A stretch of DNA of 64,000 bases. Source: Bacillota bacterium (GTDB taxonomy: Bacteria; Bacillota; Clostridia; Acetivibrionales; DTU013). The position numbers and the translations under genes were made by a program. Where the stretch lies: contig JAEZLF010000310.1 of the NCBI GenBank assembly GCA_023435925.1, forward strand, positions 999 through 64,998, read 5' to 3'. Positions within the stretch are counted from its first letter, which is position 1. The number at the start of each line of letters is the position of its first letter. Of the stretch, positions 6,876-60,782 are shown one piece after another. The notes beneath the pieces are model-generated. The model was not told the DNA's origin, did no database searches, and saw nothing but the letters and a program-made list of their open reading frames with translations.

Positions 6876-8351
6876 TCAGTCATCCTGATGCGTTTTGTTC
6901 TTCTTGCCGCAGCAGTTTTTGTATTGTTTCCCGCTTCCGCAAGAGCATGTGCTTTTACTTTCAGCAATGTCCTCCTTTCGGATAAAAGGCCTTATATTAG
7001 ACATTTCCTCAGTGACACCATGCTTCTTCCCTGAAAGTTCTGCAGACCGTTTCTCCTTTGTGTCGGGTAAATTCTCAGGTTCTTCCCCGTCATACTCATC
7101 GGCATACTCATCCCCATAGTCTTCGTCCCACTGTTCCATCAATTCCTCGAAGGTATCCTGATATTTATAGACAAGTGCCTGATATCTGGTGGTCAATATC
7201 CTTCTCTTTTTTGAATTCTGCATATCATTAAGAAATTCTTCCTTTAAACGATATAAATTAGGGTACTTATTCTTCATATATCTTATTGGCATGAGGTATT
7301 CAGTATAATCGTGCAGAAGTTGATATTCATTCATCACTGTATATGCTTCCCTCTGCCGCTCTGTCATCCCTTCTGAGGTTTCCGGAAAGAGTTCATTGAC
7401 AATCAGCGCCACCAACCCGTCCGGAATCGTGTCATCCTCCTCAAATCTGCAAAACTCCGGTTCAAGCTCCAGAATCATTTCAATTTTCTTCTTCGCCTCT
7501 ACAATATCTTCACGGTCAGGTAATAGCTTCATAATGACACTCATGCATTTATTTGCCTCTAAATACATCTGATTTTCAAGATAGAAGTCCAGTGCATTGA
7601 ACAACATATCACCTGAATCCAGCTTCTCTTCATTATCTGTTTGAATATCAGGAAGCATTTCCATATATTGAATGCTTTCTGAAAATTTCTTCTCCAGCGA
7701 TAAAATAAACACCAATCGTGCGCAGATCCTATGCTTTTTTTCTTCAAATGCAGGATTTTGATATGCTTCCTTTAAAATCCCCTCAGCTTCAGCAAGCTTA
7801 CCGGTATGCAAGTAACCTTTTGCCAGAAACAACGCAAACATAACATGATCCTTATTCCGTTCATAGCCAGTTTTTGCAAAAGTAACTGCTTTTTTATAGT
7901 TTTCATTTGCAATACAGGCCTCTGTCAGATACAGCAGCAAGTCCGTATCATATGGATACCTGTTCAGCAACAGTTCAAATGCTTTAATAGCCTTGGTGTA
8001 TTTCTCCGTTCTCAGACATGCTATTCCTAGAAGGTAATACAGGTGTGTATTATGGTTTTCTGTCCTGATCGCTTTGTCCAGTATTTTGATTGCTTCTGAA
8101 TAAAAGCCGTCTTCCATTGACTGCTCCGCAAGCTTATAAACCTGCTTTGAAGCATGATTCATGCAGTGAAAATCCCGGCAAGCATCAAACAACGATGGAT
8201 TCATCAGTAATTGGTATGCTTTTTCAATTTGGTTGTTTTCTGCAGGATACTGCTCTGCAGGGTATTTCATCAGCATTTCCTGGTAAGCCTTCTCAATTTC
8301 AGAGGCATTTGCATTCTCATCTATCTGCAGTACTTCAAAATAGTCTCTCAT
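6876..8351 (-). CDS. TPR-repeat protein with J-domain-like N-terminus and C-terminal SEC-C zinc motif
   Basis: N-terminus DYFEVLQIDENANASEIEKAYQEMLMKY is J-like, but no HPD is visible. The body is TPR-like helical repeats and the C-terminus is CSCGSGKQYKNCCGKK. Confidence 0.6.
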   Translation of the reverse strand: MRDYFEVLQIDENANASEIEKAYQEMLMKYPAEQYPAENNQIEKAYQLLMNPSLFDACRDFHCMNHASKQVYKLAEQSMEDGFYSEAIKILDKAIRTENHNTHLYYLLGIACLRTEKYTKAIKAFELLLNRYPYDTDLLLYLTEACIANENYKKAVTFAKTGYERNKDHVMFALFLAKGYLHTGKLAEAEGILKEAYQNPAFEEKKHRICARLVFILSLEKKFSESIQYMEMLPDIQTDNEEKLDSGDMLFNALDFYLENQMYLEANKCMSVIMKLLPDREDIVEAKKKIEMILELEPEFCRFEEDDTIPDGLVALIVNELFPETSEGMTERQREAYTVMNEYQLLHDYTEYLMPIRYMKNKYPNLYRLKEEFLNDMQNSKKRRILTTRYQALVYKYQDTFEELMEQWDEDYGDEYADEYDGEEPENLPDTKEKRSAELSGKKHGVTEEMSNIRPFIRKEDIAESKSTCSCGSGKQYKNCCGKKNKTHQDD

Positions 8352-28282: not shown

Positions 28283-28477
28283 ATGAGTAAAAATAAAAAG
28301 CCAAACAGACTGATTAATGAAAAATCTCCATACTTACTCCAACACGCTCATAACCCCGTAGACTGGTACCCCTGGGGGCCGGATGCCTTTTCACGAGCTG
28401 TTTCCGAGGATAAACCCATATTCCTCTCCATCGGCTATTCCACTTGTCACTGGTGCCAGTTTCATCAAATACACTAA
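28283..28477 (+). pseudogene. host 5' portion of the DUF255/YyaL-type thioredoxin-domain gene, severed by prophage insertion (attL side)
   Basis: GAGAGG RBS. Translation [58 protein letters not shown] is followed by six phage-derived codons and a stop. Composition is host-like. Confidence 0.85.
28442..28458. repeat. attL core block ACTTGTCACTGGTGCCA (inferred crossover dinucleotide CA at 28457-28458)
   Basis: This is the last stretch shared with 62728-62744 and 27945-27961. The integrase stop codon lies only 16 bp to the right. Confidence 0.7.
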
Positions 28478-29988
28478 TTGTATTCAATTTCTATTTCTGC
28501 ATCTTCACTTACTCTAGTCCATGTTATAACCTTAATTAGTTTTTTATATATTGTATTCAAATTAATAACATTAATTATTTTTAATCTATTTAACATATCC
28601 TTATAATAAGTAATTCTATCCTCTGGATTTACGCTTTGTAAATTTAACATTTTTCTTTCCAGTATATCAATTTCTTTAGTAGTTGAATAAACTAAACTTT
28701 CCCATTTCTCTTTTCTTTGTAACCATTCGTCTCTTTTATAATCTCCCAATTCATAAGCTTCGTTGACCTTATCTAAAGCAGAAACGTATTTTTCATAATC
28801 TTTTTGCTTTTTGCTTATTTCTATTTTCAAGGTTTTGATATCATTGACATAATTCCCATCATCATTTTTCTCGAGCAATTCTATTGATTTTTTAATATGA
28901 ATCTCTGCTTTCTTTTTTACCGTTTCTAATACTTCTTTATAATTTCCCCCTCTATTCGCACACTTTTCCCCCACTTCGCTTATGTGCCAGCATGGTTTTA
29001 TAAGTATATAACCATTATTCTTTTTTTGAAATGTCATGCCATAACCACATATACCACATTTAATTAGTCCACTTAATTCATATGTTCCTGCTCTCGCCCT
29101 TTTAGGTGTTTTTTGTCGTTTATTAATTAACTCTATTATTATATCGTGTTCCAATTGTGTTTTAGTAGCTTCATGACAGTTATCAACGATATTCCATTCA
29201 CTTCTAGGTAGTTCTCTATATTCTTTAGCATTAGATTTCTTAATCTTATGCCCATCGCCCTTTGTTTTATTTGTGATAATTTTACCTAGGTGAGTTTCGT
29301 CTGTTAATAATCTATATATTGCTACATTTGACCAAGCTTTACCTTTAGAACTCAATATATTTTTCTTATTCAAATCAATTGATATATTTTGTGGAGTTAC
29401 ACCTTTTAAAGCTTGTTCAATAATATATCTGTAAATCTCTAATTTTTCATCATTTACAACTAAACCTTTTTCATTAAACTTACCATTCCACTCTTGATAT
29501 TCATAAGGGAATGGAGGAATCCCATTTGTCCAATTACCCATCTTTGCTCCGGCTTTTTTACCTTGTCTTAATCTTCGGGTTATGGTTTTATATTCGTGTC
29601 TTGCGAAGAAACTTTGAAAATCAGAATAATCTTCATCTGATTCATTATTTAAGTCATAAATTTTACTTGGAGTAATAATTAATGTGTTAGATTTTTTTAA
29701 TATATCTTCAATATAACCTTGCTCATTTTTGCTTCCTCTTGACAATCTATCATAATCCATTACAACTACCGCATCATATAACTCTGATTCAACTTCGCTT
29801 AGAAGTTTTTTAAATTGTGGTCTCATCTCAATACTGTCTGATGTTCCAATTTCTGCATATTCAACATATTTCCAATTATTTTTCTCGCATAATTCTACTA
29901 ATGCATTCCTATGCTTCTGGAGGTCTTTTTCTTCATCACCCCTTGACTTTCTTAAATATATCGCAACAAATCTAACATCATATGTCAT
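28474..29988 (-). CDS. large serine recombinase (phage integrase)
   Basis: The N-terminal resolvase domain ([16 protein letters not shown]) is followed by a recombinase domain, a zinc-ribbon (CGICGYGM...C) and a coiled-coil. The ATG at 29988 has an AAGGGG RBS; the track uses an upstream TTG at 30012. Confidence 0.9.
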
Positions 29989-30008
29989 AATTTTCAACCC
30001 CTTAATAG

Positions 30009-30140
30009 TCAATATTTGGCTATTTCGTTTCTATTATATTTAACAATGTCAATTTTGTCAAATACACTTCCAATTGCTTGTGCTGTTTTCTTAATTGCCT
30101 CATCAGATGGCTGATTTTTAATTATTACGTTTATTTTCAT
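30009..30140 (-). CDS. small 43-aa protein immediately upstream of the integrase (possible directionality factor; function unknown)
   Basis: GAGGGAG RBS directly upstream of the ATG (about 2-nt spacer). Translation: MKINVIIKNQPSDEAIKKTAQAIGSVFDKIDIVKYNRNEIAKY. The stop abuts the integrase start region. Confidence 0.35.
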   Translation of the reverse strand: MKINVIIKNQPSDEAIKKTAQAIGSVFDKIDIVKYNRNEIAKY

Positions 30141-51326: not shown

Positions 51327-51770
51327 CTATACTTTTTTATCTTCATTTATTCCCCTAAATCCTTTTGTAAGTTCCTTCAACTCTTCTAAAACTTCCTTCA
51401 TGCTCTTACCCTTATTAGCTAAATAATCGTCATAGCAGCCCTGATTAATAAGCATAACCTTTATATCATTATTTATCTTCCTTATACTCAATGAGTCTGG
51501 GAACCTATAACCTCTATCATCTATTAATAAAGCAATATTATCACCATCTAAACCGTCATAAAGCATAATCCTATCTTCAGTAATTTCAATGCCTGTACAT
51601 TCCGGCAGAAATAAAATATCTATAAAATAATTCTTAAACTTACCGCTAACTGGTTTACTAAATAGATAATGCTCTTTTGTGTTAATATAATACTCATGAC
51701 CAATTAATACTCCATTATTTTCAACCAAAATCGCATTCAATATTGCTTCAATATTAACCTGCATCTTCAT
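51327..51770 (-). CDS. hypothetical protein
   Basis: 147-aa ORF that overlaps the upstream GIY-YIG gene by 17 nt. Confidence 0.5.
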   Translation of the reverse strand: MKMQVNIEAILNAILVENNGVLIGHEYYINTKEHYLFSKPVSGKFKNYFIDILFLPECTGIEITEDRIMLYDGLDGDNIALLIDDRGYRFPDSLSIRKINNDIKVMLINQGCYDDYLANKGKSMKEVLEELKELTKGFRGINEDKKV

Positions 51771-52254
51771 TATCCTCCTCTAAACTTCCCCATCTTTTAC
51801 CATTGACTATTCTGCTGATATGTACTGTGCTAACCTTAAATCTTTCAGCTAGTTCCACCTGAGTATAATCCCCTTCTCTATAGAGCTGCCTTATTGCATA
51901 TACGTCTTGCTCCGACAATCTACAATTACCGTTATTACTACCTTGCTGGCATTGAGATTTTATTAATTTCGCTTCTTGGCTGTTAAAGGGTGTTCGACCT
52001 GGCTTTATTTTATTGAGGACGGTAAACAAACTTGACATATAACCAATCCAAAACTCTTCTCTTTCCTGCAATTCTTCAACAGTACACTCCTCTAGAATCT
52101 CATATTTTGTATTATCAAAATCCTTAAAATAAGGATGTATTCCCTTTTTGATCCTTGCAAGATGATTTGACCACCTACGTTTTATATCTATACTTGCCCC
52201 AATGTAAGCCTGATTTGTGTTTGTGATCATATAAATTCCTATGTACTTCTTCAT
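51754..52254 (-). CDS. GIY-YIG nuclease-domain protein with C-terminal HTH
   Basis: IGIYMITN...AYIGASIDIKRRWSNH is GIY-YIG-like. The C-terminus YTQVELAERFKVSTVHISRIVNGKRW is an HTH. Confidence 0.7.
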   Translation of the reverse strand: MKKYIGIYMITNTNQAYIGASIDIKRRWSNHLARIKKGIHPYFKDFDNTKYEILEECTVEELQEREEFWIGYMSSLFTVLNKIKPGRTPFNSQEAKLIKSQCQQGSNNGNCRLSEQDVYAIRQLYREGDYTQVELAERFKVSTVHISRIVNGKRWGSLEEDNEDAG

Positions 52255-55805: not shown

Positions 55806-57236
55806 CTAAAATGATATACATTCTTCATATTTCTCATTTTCATCAATCATGTCTTGGCATAGCTCACAATACTCTTGACCAGGCAGAGCATTTTCTTGTT
55901 TGCAGCAGGAACATAGTTTATTGATTTGATTAGTAAGAACAATACTTTCAGGTATTTTATCTTTCTTTTTATTTGGATCCCCAGTTTTATTACCTGATCT
56001 TTTAAATTCCAAAAAACCATCATAAGAAGCATGTGTACAACTGGTAAACTGCTTCAAGTACCATTCAACAGTCATTTTTCCATCAATGATTCTTTGAATA
56101 AGGTCTTCATCCTTTTCGGAATAATAACTACCTATATATTCCTTCATCAAATCTACTTCTGGATTTTTTGAATTATAGAAATCATTTAGTTCATCAGAAA
56201 AGCTTCTGTTACTTCCAGATTGTTTATTTTCGCACTCCTCAGAACAATATTCAACAAATGCTTCAACTGGTTTTCCGCATGTTTGGCATACAGAACTTAT
56301 CTCTATGCAGCAACGATTACATAACCCCTGTGTTACCTTATCAACTTCATTACCACAACCTGAACATATAACTTTTTTCTTTTTATTGCCTTGTAGCGAT
56401 TTAGATTCTGGTTTATCTTTCTTTTGTTTCTTCTTTCCTGCAATATTCCAACCTTCATCCTTCTTCACTTTTTTGTAACCAGAAAGAATACACTTAAATA
56501 ATTCATGATATTGTTCTTCTGTCATATTTGGATAATCTTTAACCAAGATATAATGATATGCACCTGTAATACACTTATCATTCTGGTACATATCTCCGAC
56601 ACTGTCATATCTGATAAGGTTCAACTTAACAAGAATATCTAAATATTCCTTAATAGTATCTTTCTTATAAATAACACCATCATTTATGAAAGTATCAAAT
56701 GTTGGATAGCAGAATTTATATTGTTCTGAAGATAATCTTCCATCATCTTCACTTGGTTGGAAAATTCTACTTACAATATCACAGTAAATATTAAATAACT
56801 TGATATTGTTGATTGGTGTTTCTTTATAAGATAGAATCGAAATAATTTCATCTTCATCAATTTTCGAATATCCATATTCTGTTTCTGATTCATTGTTATA
56901 GTTTAAGGAAATTAATTCATCTGATCTTATGTTATCCAAATCAATATTTTGACCTATTGTAAATATTCCTGTATAGATAATTTTAGATAGAAACGATTTA
57001 AAATATTGTCTCTGTCTTTTGATGTTACCAGATATATCTATATAGAACTTATTGATATAACTTAAAATAGAATTTATCGAAACAACACAATCTCCATGAA
57101 TTGTTAACATACGCTTTAAACATATGTAATAAATTATGCAGAAAGAATATAGTTCACCAAATGATAAAATTGATTGCCAGTTCTTTTTACTATTTGGCCT
57201 AACACAGATATTGCTAAAACTAATATTATTCTTCAT
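55806..57236 (-). CDS. multi-zinc-ribbon early protein (candidate DNA-binding / replication-initiation protein)
   Basis: 476 aa with three CxxC...CxxC clusters (CSGCG..CNRCC, CQTCG..CSEEC, CSCCK..CELC) and a basic linker. An iteron array lies upstream. Confidence 0.4.
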   Translation of the reverse strand: MKNNISFSNICVRPNSKKNWQSILSFGELYSFCIIYYICLKRMLTIHGDCVVSINSILSYINKFYIDISGNIKRQRQYFKSFLSKIIYTGIFTIGQNIDLDNIRSDELISLNYNNESETEYGYSKIDEDEIISILSYKETPINNIKLFNIYCDIVSRIFQPSEDDGRLSSEQYKFCYPTFDTFINDGVIYKKDTIKEYLDILVKLNLIRYDSVGDMYQNDKCITGAYHYILVKDYPNMTEEQYHELFKCILSGYKKVKKDEGWNIAGKKKQKKDKPESKSLQGNKKKKVICSGCGNEVDKVTQGLCNRCCIEISSVCQTCGKPVEAFVEYCSEECENKQSGSNRSFSDELNDFYNSKNPEVDLMKEYIGSYYSEKDEDLIQRIIDGKMTVEWYLKQFTSCTHASYDGFLEFKRSGNKTGDPNKKKDKIPESIVLTNQINKLCSCCKQENALPGQEYCELCQDMIDENEKYEECISF

Positions 57237-59218: not shown

Positions 59219-59374
59219 CTAATCATTATCAATACTTATCTCATCACTGAAATATTCATATGTTCCTTCAACAGGTTTACTACAATCGTTGCACACATCC
59301 CAATGTCCCCACATATCCATTTCAGTATATACACTAGATGAATGTTCGCATTTGCAAAATTCAGTTTCTTCCAC
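59219..59374 (-). CDS. small Cys-rich (zinc-ribbon-like) protein, 51 aa
   Basis: GTG start after an AAGGGAG RBS. Translation: VEETEFCKCEHSSSVYTEMDMWGHWDVCNDCSKPVEGTYEYFSDEISIDND. Confidence 0.35.
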   Translation of the reverse strand: MEETEFCKCEHSSSVYTEMDMWGHWDVCNDCSKPVEGTYEYFSDEISIDND

Positions 59375-59539
59375 AGTTATTAACACTCCCTTTGCCAATA
59401 TAAGAAGTAAATAAACTTTCAGTAATAAATTATATCACATAACTTTACATATGTATCCTATTAAGAAAAATCTCAATATTAAATTATCAAAGTACAATCT
59501 ATAAGATCAAAGGGCTGCATTGTCCCTATTCAGGTGGTT

Positions 59540-59615
59540 CCCACGACCTCCCCGTCATATTTGACGGATCATTGGTTTCGGCCTGTTCCACCGACCCAGG
59601 CCATCATCAGGTGGA
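59540..59615 (-). ncRNA. candidate type I hammerhead self-cleaving ribozyme
   Basis: Minus-strand RNA: UCCAC-CUGAUGA-U-GGCCUG(loop GGUCGGUGGAA)CAGGCC-GAAA-CC..CCGUCA(AAUA)UGACGG..GGUC|GUGGG. All core blocks, a GUC cleavage triplet and three stems are in the right order. It is a GC-rich island in AT-rich phage DNA. Confidence 0.6.
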
Positions 59616-59864
59616 TTTATTAGCTAAAAGCAAAAGAAATATCATGTGTACCTGGACTCTCTTTTTGATGTAGTCAACTGCTTCCTTAAATTCCGTAAAA
59701 ATCAAATTGTTGTCGATACTGGAGTAGGATAATTGACTATCCTCAAATACCTGAAAGTAATATACCTGCATCACAATTAACTCAAATATGGCTATTTTGC
59801 TATTCCCTGCTGTCCATGTCCATAATGGATAGACTTTGCCTTCAGCCTTACAAAAGTTCAGCAT
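59607..59864 (-). CDS. hypothetical protein
   Basis: 85-aa ORF. Its stop is the UGA inside the CUGAUGA box, so the 3' end may be fortuitous. Confidence 0.4.
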   Translation of the reverse strand: MLNFCKAEGKVYPLWTWTAGNSKIAIFELIVMQVYYFQVFEDSQLSYSSIDNNLIFTEFKEAVDYIKKRVQVHMIFLLLLANKST

Positions 59865-60444: not shown

Positions 60445-60535
60445 ATTATACTACGCAAATCGTAATTAGTCAATACGATTATCGTAATTTTTATTTTATT
60501 TTCGTATTGACTCGTTACGCAAATCGTATTATAAT
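60445..60535. promoter_or_regulatory. genetic-switch region: mirrored back-to-back promoters with three TACG-N5-CGTA operators
   Basis: Leftward promoter: TTGACT (60473-60468), 17 nt, TATAAT (60450-60445). Rightward promoter: TTGACT (60507-60512), 17 nt, TATAAT (60530-60535). Operators: TACGCAAATCGTA at 60452-60464 and 60516-60528, and TACGATTATCGTA at 60474-60486. Confidence 0.65.
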
Positions 60536-60560: not shown

Positions 60561-60782
60561 TTGCCAGTAAAATTTAAACTAAAAATGCTTCTTGCCATTA
60601 ATGAAATGACACAAAAGGAATTGGCTGAAAAAACAGGTATAAGGCCACCAACTATTTCAGCAATATGCAATAATTCAATTAAGCAAATACCCGTATCAGT
60701 AATAGAAAAGATATGTAAATGTCTAAATTGTAAGCCTGTAGATTGGATTGACTACATAGACGAAAATCAAGAAAACACCTGA
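60561..60782 (+). CDS. XRE/Cro-CI-type HTH regulator (73 aa), the only clear plus-strand regulator in the prophage
   Basis: MTQKELAEKTGIRPPTISAICNN is an HTH. TTG start 8 nt after a GAGAGGTG RBS. Confidence 0.75.
   Translation: MPVKFKLKMLLAINEMTQKELAEKTGIRPPTISAICNNSIKQIPVSVIEKICKCLNCKPVDWIDYIDENQENT

Follow-up and report, generated by a model that had tools for sequence, protein, structure and literature searches.

Hammerhead ribozymes with pseudoknots, representing all three types, are found between the genes of prophages, as described by Perreault et al. in 2011 (PMC3088659). Tandem arrangements from three bacteria cleaved during in vitro transcription in that work, and one also cleaved in vivo in E. 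coli. A pseudoknot joining stems I and II was required for fast cleavage in the tested type II example and is predicted to exist in about 40% of hammerheads; the role proposed for these hammerheads was the processing of long phage transcripts into gene-length RNAs. Type II was emphasised, and the core was said to match the consensus "almost without exception". Here we analyse a 64-kb stretch of DNA from a Bacillota bacterium (contig JAEZLF010000310.1; this whole stretch is called the window), in which a 76-nucleotide (nt) island on the minus strand, at 59540-59615, is probably a hammerhead that cleaves the early transcript of a prophage between 59545 and 59544. The island shares with the hammerheads of 2011 the catalytic core, the three-way junction and an intergenic, coding-strand position among prophage genes. 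It differs in its type I arrangement and in an extra U in the core that is found throughout its lineage; some members of that lineage, the window among them, carry a conserved 3' module on which that paper is silent. The sequence CUGAUGAUGG does not occur in the text supplements of that paper.

One extra nucleotide at the same core position is known from the (+) hammerhead of chrysanthemum chlorotic mottle viroid (CChMVd). According to PMC3705267, which summarises De la Pena and Flores (2001), CChMVd(+) has a natural extra A (A10) between A9 and G10.1 that lowers trans-cleavage moderately, while its replacement by U, the best residue at this place, raises the rate 3-4 fold. Since CChMVd(+) tolerates a residue there and U speeds its cleavage, the extra U of the island appears compatible with catalysis. 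The viroid has a natural A and a loop-loop tertiary contact, whereas the island has a U, a predicted pseudoknot and a DNA phage as its setting.

The island also resembles the RNA of a pseudoknot hammerhead crystal structure (Nat Commun 2024, PMC11300833), in which the stem II loop likewise forms a pseudoknot helix. That RNA uses the same catalytic mechanism as extended hammerheads and has a minimal stem II of one G10.1-C11.1 pair plus a sheared A9-G12 pair; in the abstract of that paper its secondary structure is called essentially identical to that of pistol. The island differs from it by a stem II of 6 base pairs (bp), a loop of 11 nt and the extra U. With the Rfam families RF00163 (Hammerhead_1), RF02276 (Hammerhead_II) and RF03152 (RAGATH-1-hammerhead) it has in common the CUGAUGA ... 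GAAA ... UH core.

Structure of the island

A type I hammerhead had been proposed here by an earlier reading of the sequence alone (the original prediction). Direct reading of the minus strand agrees with the sequence, core boxes, three stems and GUC site that were quoted then. From 5' to 3' on this strand the parts are as follows.

59611-59615, minus: 5' strand of stem I, UCCAC; 5 bp with GUGGG at 59544-59540, including a terminal U-G wobble
59604-59610, minus: core box CUGAUGA (C3-U4-G5-A6-U7-G8-A9), read from the sequence
59603, minus: extra U between A9 and G10.1, from the sequence and from comparison within the lineage
59580-59602, minus: stem II, 6 bp, GGCCUG (59602-59597) with CAGGCC (59585-59580)
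59596-59586, minus: loop II, 11 nt, with the pseudoknot strand GGUGG at 59592-59588
59576-59579, minus: GAAA (G12-A13-A14 plus A15.1), kept in relatives found without selection on the core
59546-59576, minus: stem III, made of A15.1-U16.1 plus CC/GG (3 bp), a 6x3 internal loop and the distal hairpin CCGUCA-AAUA-UGACGG
59544-59545, minus: predicted cleavage site between C17 (59545) and G1.1 (59544), in a G-U-C triplet, from the descriptor
59540-59544, minus: 3' strand of stem I, GUGGG; alternative partner CCAC (59537-59534) after cleavage
59533-59539, minus: AA linker and CCACC tail, the latter in a predicted pseudoknot with loop II

The hammerhead class is defined by C3-U4-G5-A6-N7-G8-A9, here CUGAUGA at 59610-59604; by G12-A13-A14 followed by an A15.1-U16.1 pair, here formed by 59576 and 59546; and by a non-G residue (H17) located 3' of U16.1 and 5' of stem I, here the C of GUC. 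Stem I is open while stems II and III are capped by loops, both in the sequence and in the fold of the 76-nt RNA, which is the topology of type I. The one departure from the strict consensus concerns the G10.1-C11.1 pair (59602/59580), which does not directly follow A9 because U 59603 intervenes. An independent hammerhead descriptor, run over the whole window, returned C3 at 59610 and C17 at 59545, the position first assigned to it. The island is thus very probably a type I hammerhead, as judged by family, core and covariation, in which the adjacency of A9 and G10.1 alone is not clean, a departure shared by the lineage.

Both the 5-bp stem I and the 6-bp stem II stand as first described, as do the base and distal hairpin of stem III. 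The strands of the stem III internal loop are AAUGAU and GGA, and the distal hairpin pairs with probabilities of 0.75-1.0 in folding. Loop II (GGUGG, 59592-59588) and the tail (CCACC, 59537-59533) are predicted to make contact through 5 perfect pairs. The original prediction had extended this pseudoknot to 6 bp; the added C and U are unpaired, whereas the contact itself covaries across relatives. Within the window the island is single-copy and coincides with a local peak in the fraction of G plus C (0.52 at 59500-59599, in a 100-nt sliding window, in a vicinity of ~0.2-0.4).

Relatives and the extra-U lineage

Viral contigs were scanned with the degenerate pattern CTGATGA-N-GGCC ... GGCC-GAAA, derived from the core and stem II of the island. 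At least 120 loci with the layout of the island were obtained, against a rough chance expectation of ~15; the invariance of CUGAUGA among relatives found in this way follows from the construction of the pattern. Among the matches listed, N was T (the extra U) in 118 of 126, and 99 of 127 were recognised as complete type I hammerheads by a structural parser that asks for a stem I of 4-8 bp flanking the core, an A15.1-U16.1 pair closing stem III, and either GUC or GUA ahead of the 3' strand of stem I. The cleavage-site position is accordingly occupied by GUC or GUA in the parsed relatives. Again among the matches listed, the distinct parsed sequences number 76 with the window included, i.e. 75 relatives. 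In most of them the same strand carries a ribosome-binding site and start codon at most a few tens of nt further on.

A second scan left the core unconstrained and used a pattern for the 3' half (GAAA, common stem III, GUC, 3' strand of stem I). The extra U was present in 54 of its 74 distinct matches, an extra G in 1 and no extra residue in 2, with 17 unparsed. Inspected by eye, 5 of these 17 have G10.1-C11.1 followed by 1-2 bulged residues before the remainder of stem II, the stem II of another 4 is more complex than the rule allows, and several have no visible core in the 50 nt displayed. Interruption of stem III (two pairs, an internal loop and a hairpin) was seen in 14 of the 75 relatives from the matches listed; a layout like that of the window is found in L015, L018, L030, L034, L036, L055, L060, L065, L068, L084, L115 and others. 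Thus, the two features that had been set down as deviations from the textbook core, the extra U and the interrupted stem III, are both present, and they are normal for the lineage.

Two hammerheads on one contig are common (L052, at ~2300-2350, L113, L043, L067, L072, L091, L105 and L121). Some pairs lie within ~100 nt of each other, and in L113 the second core begins ~20 nt past the conserved box described below; the window has one hammerhead only. Some second copies have a canonical core, with G10.1-C11.1 and then a bulge in place of the extra U. One contig with a family member (L026) also bears an RT-14 RNA (Rfam RF02921, 80.3 bits; 7743-7884, minus strand).

Covariation and family models

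An alignment, A2, was made of the 75 relatives with the window excluded. In A2, 89.9% of cells are paired, a share that drops to 28-48% if the 3' partners are displaced by 1-3 columns, and the observed covariation score was reached by none of 500 shuffles. Compensatory changes occur in all three helices of the hammerhead: both sides change in stem I, in distal stem II and in stem III, the base of which (helix 4 of the alignment) covaries. Stem I is paired in 92% of cells, with both-side changes at 5 of 5 pairs. The first four pairs of stem II vary in relatives retrieved through the conserved box, where the stems read GGCAG/CUGCC, GAUCUA/UAGAUC, GGCUG/CAGUC and GGCUG/CAGCC. Because G-U pairs are strand-specific and the downstream genes lie on the same strand, an element acting as RNA is favoured.

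The pseudoknot is paired in 78.6% of A2 cells and shows both-side changes at all 4 positions. A test on the 76 members that uses no alignment agrees with this: the best helix between loop II and tail averages 3.99 bp, versus 3.40 +/- 0.07 with permuted partners, and a helix of at least 4 bp is available in 54 of 76 members, the permuted maximum being 43. With 5 pairs, the pseudoknot of the island exceeds the family mean.

The covariance model R1, built from A2, gives the island 52.8 bits (E ~2e-14; model positions 1-74 of 74), the next best score in the window being 9.9; the search pattern came from the island, and the match to the core and GGCC is partly by construction. For this reason a second model, R2, was built from five hammerheads that had been found solely via the conserved box ~45 nt downstream. 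R2 gives the island 32.4 bits (E ~2e-5; positions 1-69 of 69), again as the unique match in the window, where the next best score is 9. Cores were unselected in the six relatives, besides L057, that came from the box scan; five of them read CUGAUGAU and L215 reads CUGAUGA.

Cultured phages are among the members. Flavonifractor phage Castelnaud (L263) scores 74.6 bits and Faecalibacterium phage FP_Brigit 67.5 bits with R1, while the member in Salisaeta icosahedral phage 1 is a BLAST match only. None of the three copies is annotated as RNA in GenBank. The ribozyme of FP_Brigit occupies the interval separating two genes of the same strand. In Castelnaud (ON453903.1) an annotated 157-amino-acid (aa) "hypothetical protein" on the opposite strand (901-1374, WAK79682.1) covers the hammerhead and two small plus-strand open reading frames (ORFs) with ribosome-binding sites; it looks like a gene-caller overcall.

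Scans with known families

None of the hammerhead families RF00163, RF00008, RF02275-RF02277 and RF03152 in Rfam 15 reaches its gathering threshold on the island. The same Rfam 15 search returned no match over the whole window at gathering score, and its hammerhead models returned none on a 281-nt slice even at E<=10. The original prediction had proposed such a search and would have counted its failure against the ribozyme. At face value the result goes that way, yet Rfam 15 also finds no hammerhead at gathering score at 14 loci with clean, textbook-looking relatives. The scores on the consensus relative L005 are illustrative.

RAGATH-1-hammerhead: 18.3 bits, gathering score 56.3
Hammerhead_II: 16.5 bits, gathering score 37
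Hammerhead_1: 12.3 bits, gathering score 34

The Rfam 15 hammerhead models are insensitive to the extra-U lineage, and because clean relatives are missed as well, their negative result for the island is uninformative. The alignment of RAGATH-1-hammerhead to L005 covers both core boxes as well as stems I and III. The 5' hairpin of RAGATH-1 is absent from the island: this model gave no match in the window at E<=10, and an ORF runs to its 3' end just upstream of the island.

A BLAST search of the window region against GenBank phages returned nothing. A tRNA or phage attachment site (attP) remnant was considered and rejected, as ARAGORN finds no tRNA-like features. A C/D-box k-turn RNA (UGAUGA ... 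CUGA) was also rejected, given the lack of an adjacent terminal stem, the bacterial prophage host and the absence of any C/D-box model match on the island; a weak sR51 match lay on the relative L005 and not on the island.

Chance expectation and folding

The descriptor consisted of CUGANGA, an optional extra nt, stem II, GAAA, a stem III closed by A-U, UH, and stem I. None of 300 dinucleotide shuffles of the window equalled the island (stem I at least 5, stem II at least 6 and stem III at least 3 bp), and a looser descriptor matched in 6 of 300. In the window itself the loose descriptor picks out CUGAAGA ... GAAA on the plus strand at ~56726-56800, antisense within the 476-aa ORF. This second match is probably due to chance, as it is AT-rich, has U-G at 10.1-11.1 and a wobble-rich stem II, and is missed by both R1 and R2.

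For the 76-nt RNA that ends at stem I, the hammerhead is the minimum-energy fold, at -27.3 kcal/mol. When the tail is added, a competing fold becomes 1.1 kcal/mol better (-28.7 vs -27.6) and the pair probability of stem I drops to ~0.1, in a comparison that gives the 5-pair pseudoknot no credit, since nearest-neighbour folding cannot score it. Over a 111-nt region the stability is ordinary for the composition (z-score ~0). Because the fold is not unusually stable, the case for a ribozyme rests on comparative evidence and not on thermodynamics.

Tail repeat and conserved 3' module

The ribozyme is flanked by a direct repeat, CCACCUGA, at 59614-59607 and 59537-59530 (minus strand). Among the 76 members the tail often carries a second copy of the 5' strand of stem I, and the repeat tracks the stem I sequence. 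A hairpin of at least 4 bp at the 5' end of the 3' cleavage product is possible in 50 of 76, compared with ~22 (maximum 32) when tails are shuffled. The repeat is thus explained by a tail that is complementary to both loop II and stem I. A miniature inverted-repeat transposable element or a target-site duplication was rejected as its source, there being no inverted repeats.

Beyond the tail lies a conserved module that is common to the window and 16 phage relatives (L009, L026, L033, L052, L057, L082, L087, L092, L097, L113, L144, L155, L173, L202, L203 and L215).

59484-59533, minus: the conserved 3' module as a whole
59533-31 and 59517-15, minus: helix A, CUG with CAG; CGGC/GCCG in most relatives
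59526-24 and 59514-12, minus: helix B, GGG with CCC, interleaved with helix A
59511-09, minus: U-run
59501-59484, minus: 18-nt box UAGAUUGUACUUUGAUAA

Helix B is 97% paired, with GC, UA, AU and UG types at one position, and takes the covarying forms GUGG/CCAC, GAGG/CCUC and AGGG/CCCU elsewhere. Helix A hardly varies, so its pairing is weakly supported. The box is identical to that of L057 at 20 of 21 positions, and the module of L215 is nearly the same as that of the window. What follows the box differs between relatives and may be a start codon, another hammerhead, an AT-rich spacer or, as in Castelnaud and L033, a strong hairpin with no gene. The proteins encoded downstream of the module are unrelated to each other.

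No Rfam family matches the module at gathering score in the window or in 14 relatives, and literature searches turned up nothing comparable. A scan of genome contigs for a tail and module of the window type gave 15 matches, all due to chance and none with a hammerhead; a scan of metagenome contigs gave 4, also all chance. In viral contigs the composite scan recovered only L215. Two other readings of the module were discarded: a sigma-70 promoter with TTGAnA in the box as -35 lacks a conserved -10, and in L092, L097 and L202 an ORF starts 13-18 nt further on; and a TnpB guide RNA, by analogy with RAGATH-18, has no gene of TnpB size nearby.

Prophage and operon context

The right half of the window is a prophage, with tail genes, tape measure, major head, portal and large terminase all on the minus strand. 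The features relevant to the early region and to integration are given below.

28474-30012, minus: large serine integrase
59607-59864, minus: upstream 85-aa ORF, called as a gene in the source assembly
60445-60473, minus: promoter-like TTGACT-17-TATAAT, 11/12, from a consensus scan only
60507-60535, plus: promoter-like site, near-consensus (11/12), before the repressor gene and facing away from the minus-strand site
60561-60782, plus: helix-turn-helix (HTH) repressor gene, 73 aa, with matches to HTH repressor families

The divergent promoters (60445-60535) and the HTH repressor gene (60561-60782) have the layout of a lambda-like lysis/lysogeny switch. The island lies ~830-930 nt downstream of the early leftward promoter, after ORFs of 155 and 85 aa and before ORFs of 51/59, 183, 476 and 941 aa. 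No terminator-like site was found by the scan on the minus strand between the promoter at 60473-60445 and the island. The polycistronic early operon in which the ribozyme was originally placed is therefore well supported, by the strong promoter, the uninterrupted stretch up to the island and the prophage genes.

The 85-aa ORF is an orphan, with only itself as a match among 5.8 billion proteins. Its stop codon is U4-G5-A6 of the core (59609-59607) and is followed by a second in-frame UGA, the two together spanning 59604-59609; an ORF that ends on UGA in the core, with a second in-frame UGA, is also seen in phage Castelnaud (L263 1222-1227). A ribosome completing the upstream ORF would sit over the catalytic core. 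No relatives of the 183-aa ORF were found in viral contigs, and exact-protein look-ups of the flanking proteins returned identical copies of the locus only. A perfect extended -10, TGATATAAT, lies at 59429-59437 on the minus strand, past the 3' module and before the next gene, whose start is at 59374 or 59398. It has no good -35 and hence was not listed by the consensus scan, and the genes downstream of it may have their own promoter. Elsewhere in the prophage, a 166-aa ORF (51754-52254, minus) matches homing-endonuclease / HNH families (phrog_314, E 3e-11).

Proposed mechanism

The cleavage, the refolding and any effect on expression described here are what we infer from the sequence, fold, family, covariation and operon context. 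The element would be transcribed within the minus-strand early operon from the promoter at ~60445-60473. Once the 3' strand of stem I has been made, the hammerhead would fold, and the pseudoknot between loop II and the tail would hold stems I and II together. In hammerhead chemistry the 2'-OH of C17 attacks its own 3' phosphate. A cut between C17 (59545) and G1.1 (59544) would leave the upstream product, with its ORFs of 155 and 85 aa, ending in a 2',3'-cyclic phosphate, and the downstream product starting with a 5'-OH. The first 11 nt of the latter could then refold into a small hairpin (GUGG/CCAC), ahead of a conserved leader with helices A and B and the 18-nt box. As a result, the stability of the two halves of the transcript would no longer be linked, and their translation probably would not be either.

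Alternative explanations

Several of the observations above weigh against an active ribozyme at this locus: the Rfam negatives, the part of the R1 score that is built in, the competing fold once the tail is present, and the unremarkable fold stability. To these must be added that the exact locus is known only as identical copies in sequence collections, so that there is no covariation at the locus itself, and that two of its parts are family outliers. Loop II exceeds the family consensus by 4 nt in the R1 alignment, and the 6x3 internal loop of stem III is larger than in any relative seen, so this copy could be slow. These outliers are the main ground for regarding the island as a hammerhead by descent that is now slow or inactive, and is kept as a structured spacer or for the attached 3' module. 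Alternative folds built on the repeated CCACC have about the same stability, and L215, the closest relative by its 3' module, has two wobble pairs in stem I and no possible loop II pseudoknot, which suggests that this sub-branch may be drifting. Nevertheless, all catalytic residues of the island are intact, as are the first three pairs of stem III, those that matter for the core; the pseudoknot has more perfect pairs than the family average; and weak stems III are common among active natural hammerheads (PMC3088659). We therefore consider decay improbable. Far less credible still is a chance resemblance, in which terminator or attenuator hairpins, a DNA-level site, or a tRNA/attP remnant happen to contain CUGAUGA and GAAA. 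The lack of an Rfam match, the z-score near 0 and the fact that CUGAUGA doubles as the tandem stop of the upstream ORF would be in keeping with it. However, no shuffle matched as well as the island, both family models single it out in the window, and the helices covary in relatives, strand-specific G-U pairs included. No terminator of the hairpin-plus-U-run kind lies over the island on the minus strand, tRNA-like features are absent, and the CCACCUGA repeat, which lacks terminal inverted repeats, is accounted for by tail complementarity. The comparative data effectively refute this explanation.

A different question is what an active hammerhead would be for. Its main role might be to release or shape the RNA that follows, as a leader or a small RNA with a defined 5' end, instead of separating cistrons. 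The 3' module has been kept with the ribozyme in the 16 relatives, which come from otherwise unrelated phages, and unrelated proteins, or in Castelnaud and L033 a hairpin and no gene, lie beyond it. The possible 5'-terminal hairpin is enriched, and with the extended -10 TGATATAAT in place the next gene may not need read-through. Against this, ~60 of the 76 family members have no module and lead straight to a ribosome-binding site and start codon, the sequence after the box is heterogeneous, no target or partner was identified, and helix A barely varies. We regard this role as doubtful, if worth bearing in mind. Self-cleavage of the early transcript by a hammerhead remains the best explanation, and by every testable criterion the island is, at the level of its sequence, a type I hammerhead with a pseudoknot, of the kind reported from prophages in 2011. 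Only tentatively do we suggest that it belongs to a composite phage element of ~135 nt (59615-59484), comprising an extra-U type I ribozyme, a refolding tail, two interleaved helices and the box UAGAUUGUACUUUGAUAA, in which the ribozyme would define precisely where a functional leader or small RNA begins.

Significance

That hammerheads occur among the genes of prophages has been known since 2011, and this locus leaves that picture unchanged. What it adds concerns the family. The Rfam 15 hammerhead models miss a lineage with more than 100 viral-contig members, including those of cultured Faecalibacterium, Flavonifractor and Salisaeta phages, and as these models miss the extra-U lineage, phage ribozymes are under-counted by annotation pipelines. 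An extra residue between A9 and G10.1 was earlier a viroid curiosity and an engineering trick; here, the extra U seems to be what a whole lineage naturally carries by default. If the composite element is real, the extra-U lineage together with its 3' module would constitute an RNA motif associated with hammerheads that is undescribed and has no entry in Rfam 15. A 3' module fused to the cleavage product would offer a concrete handle on the role of bacterial and phage hammerheads.

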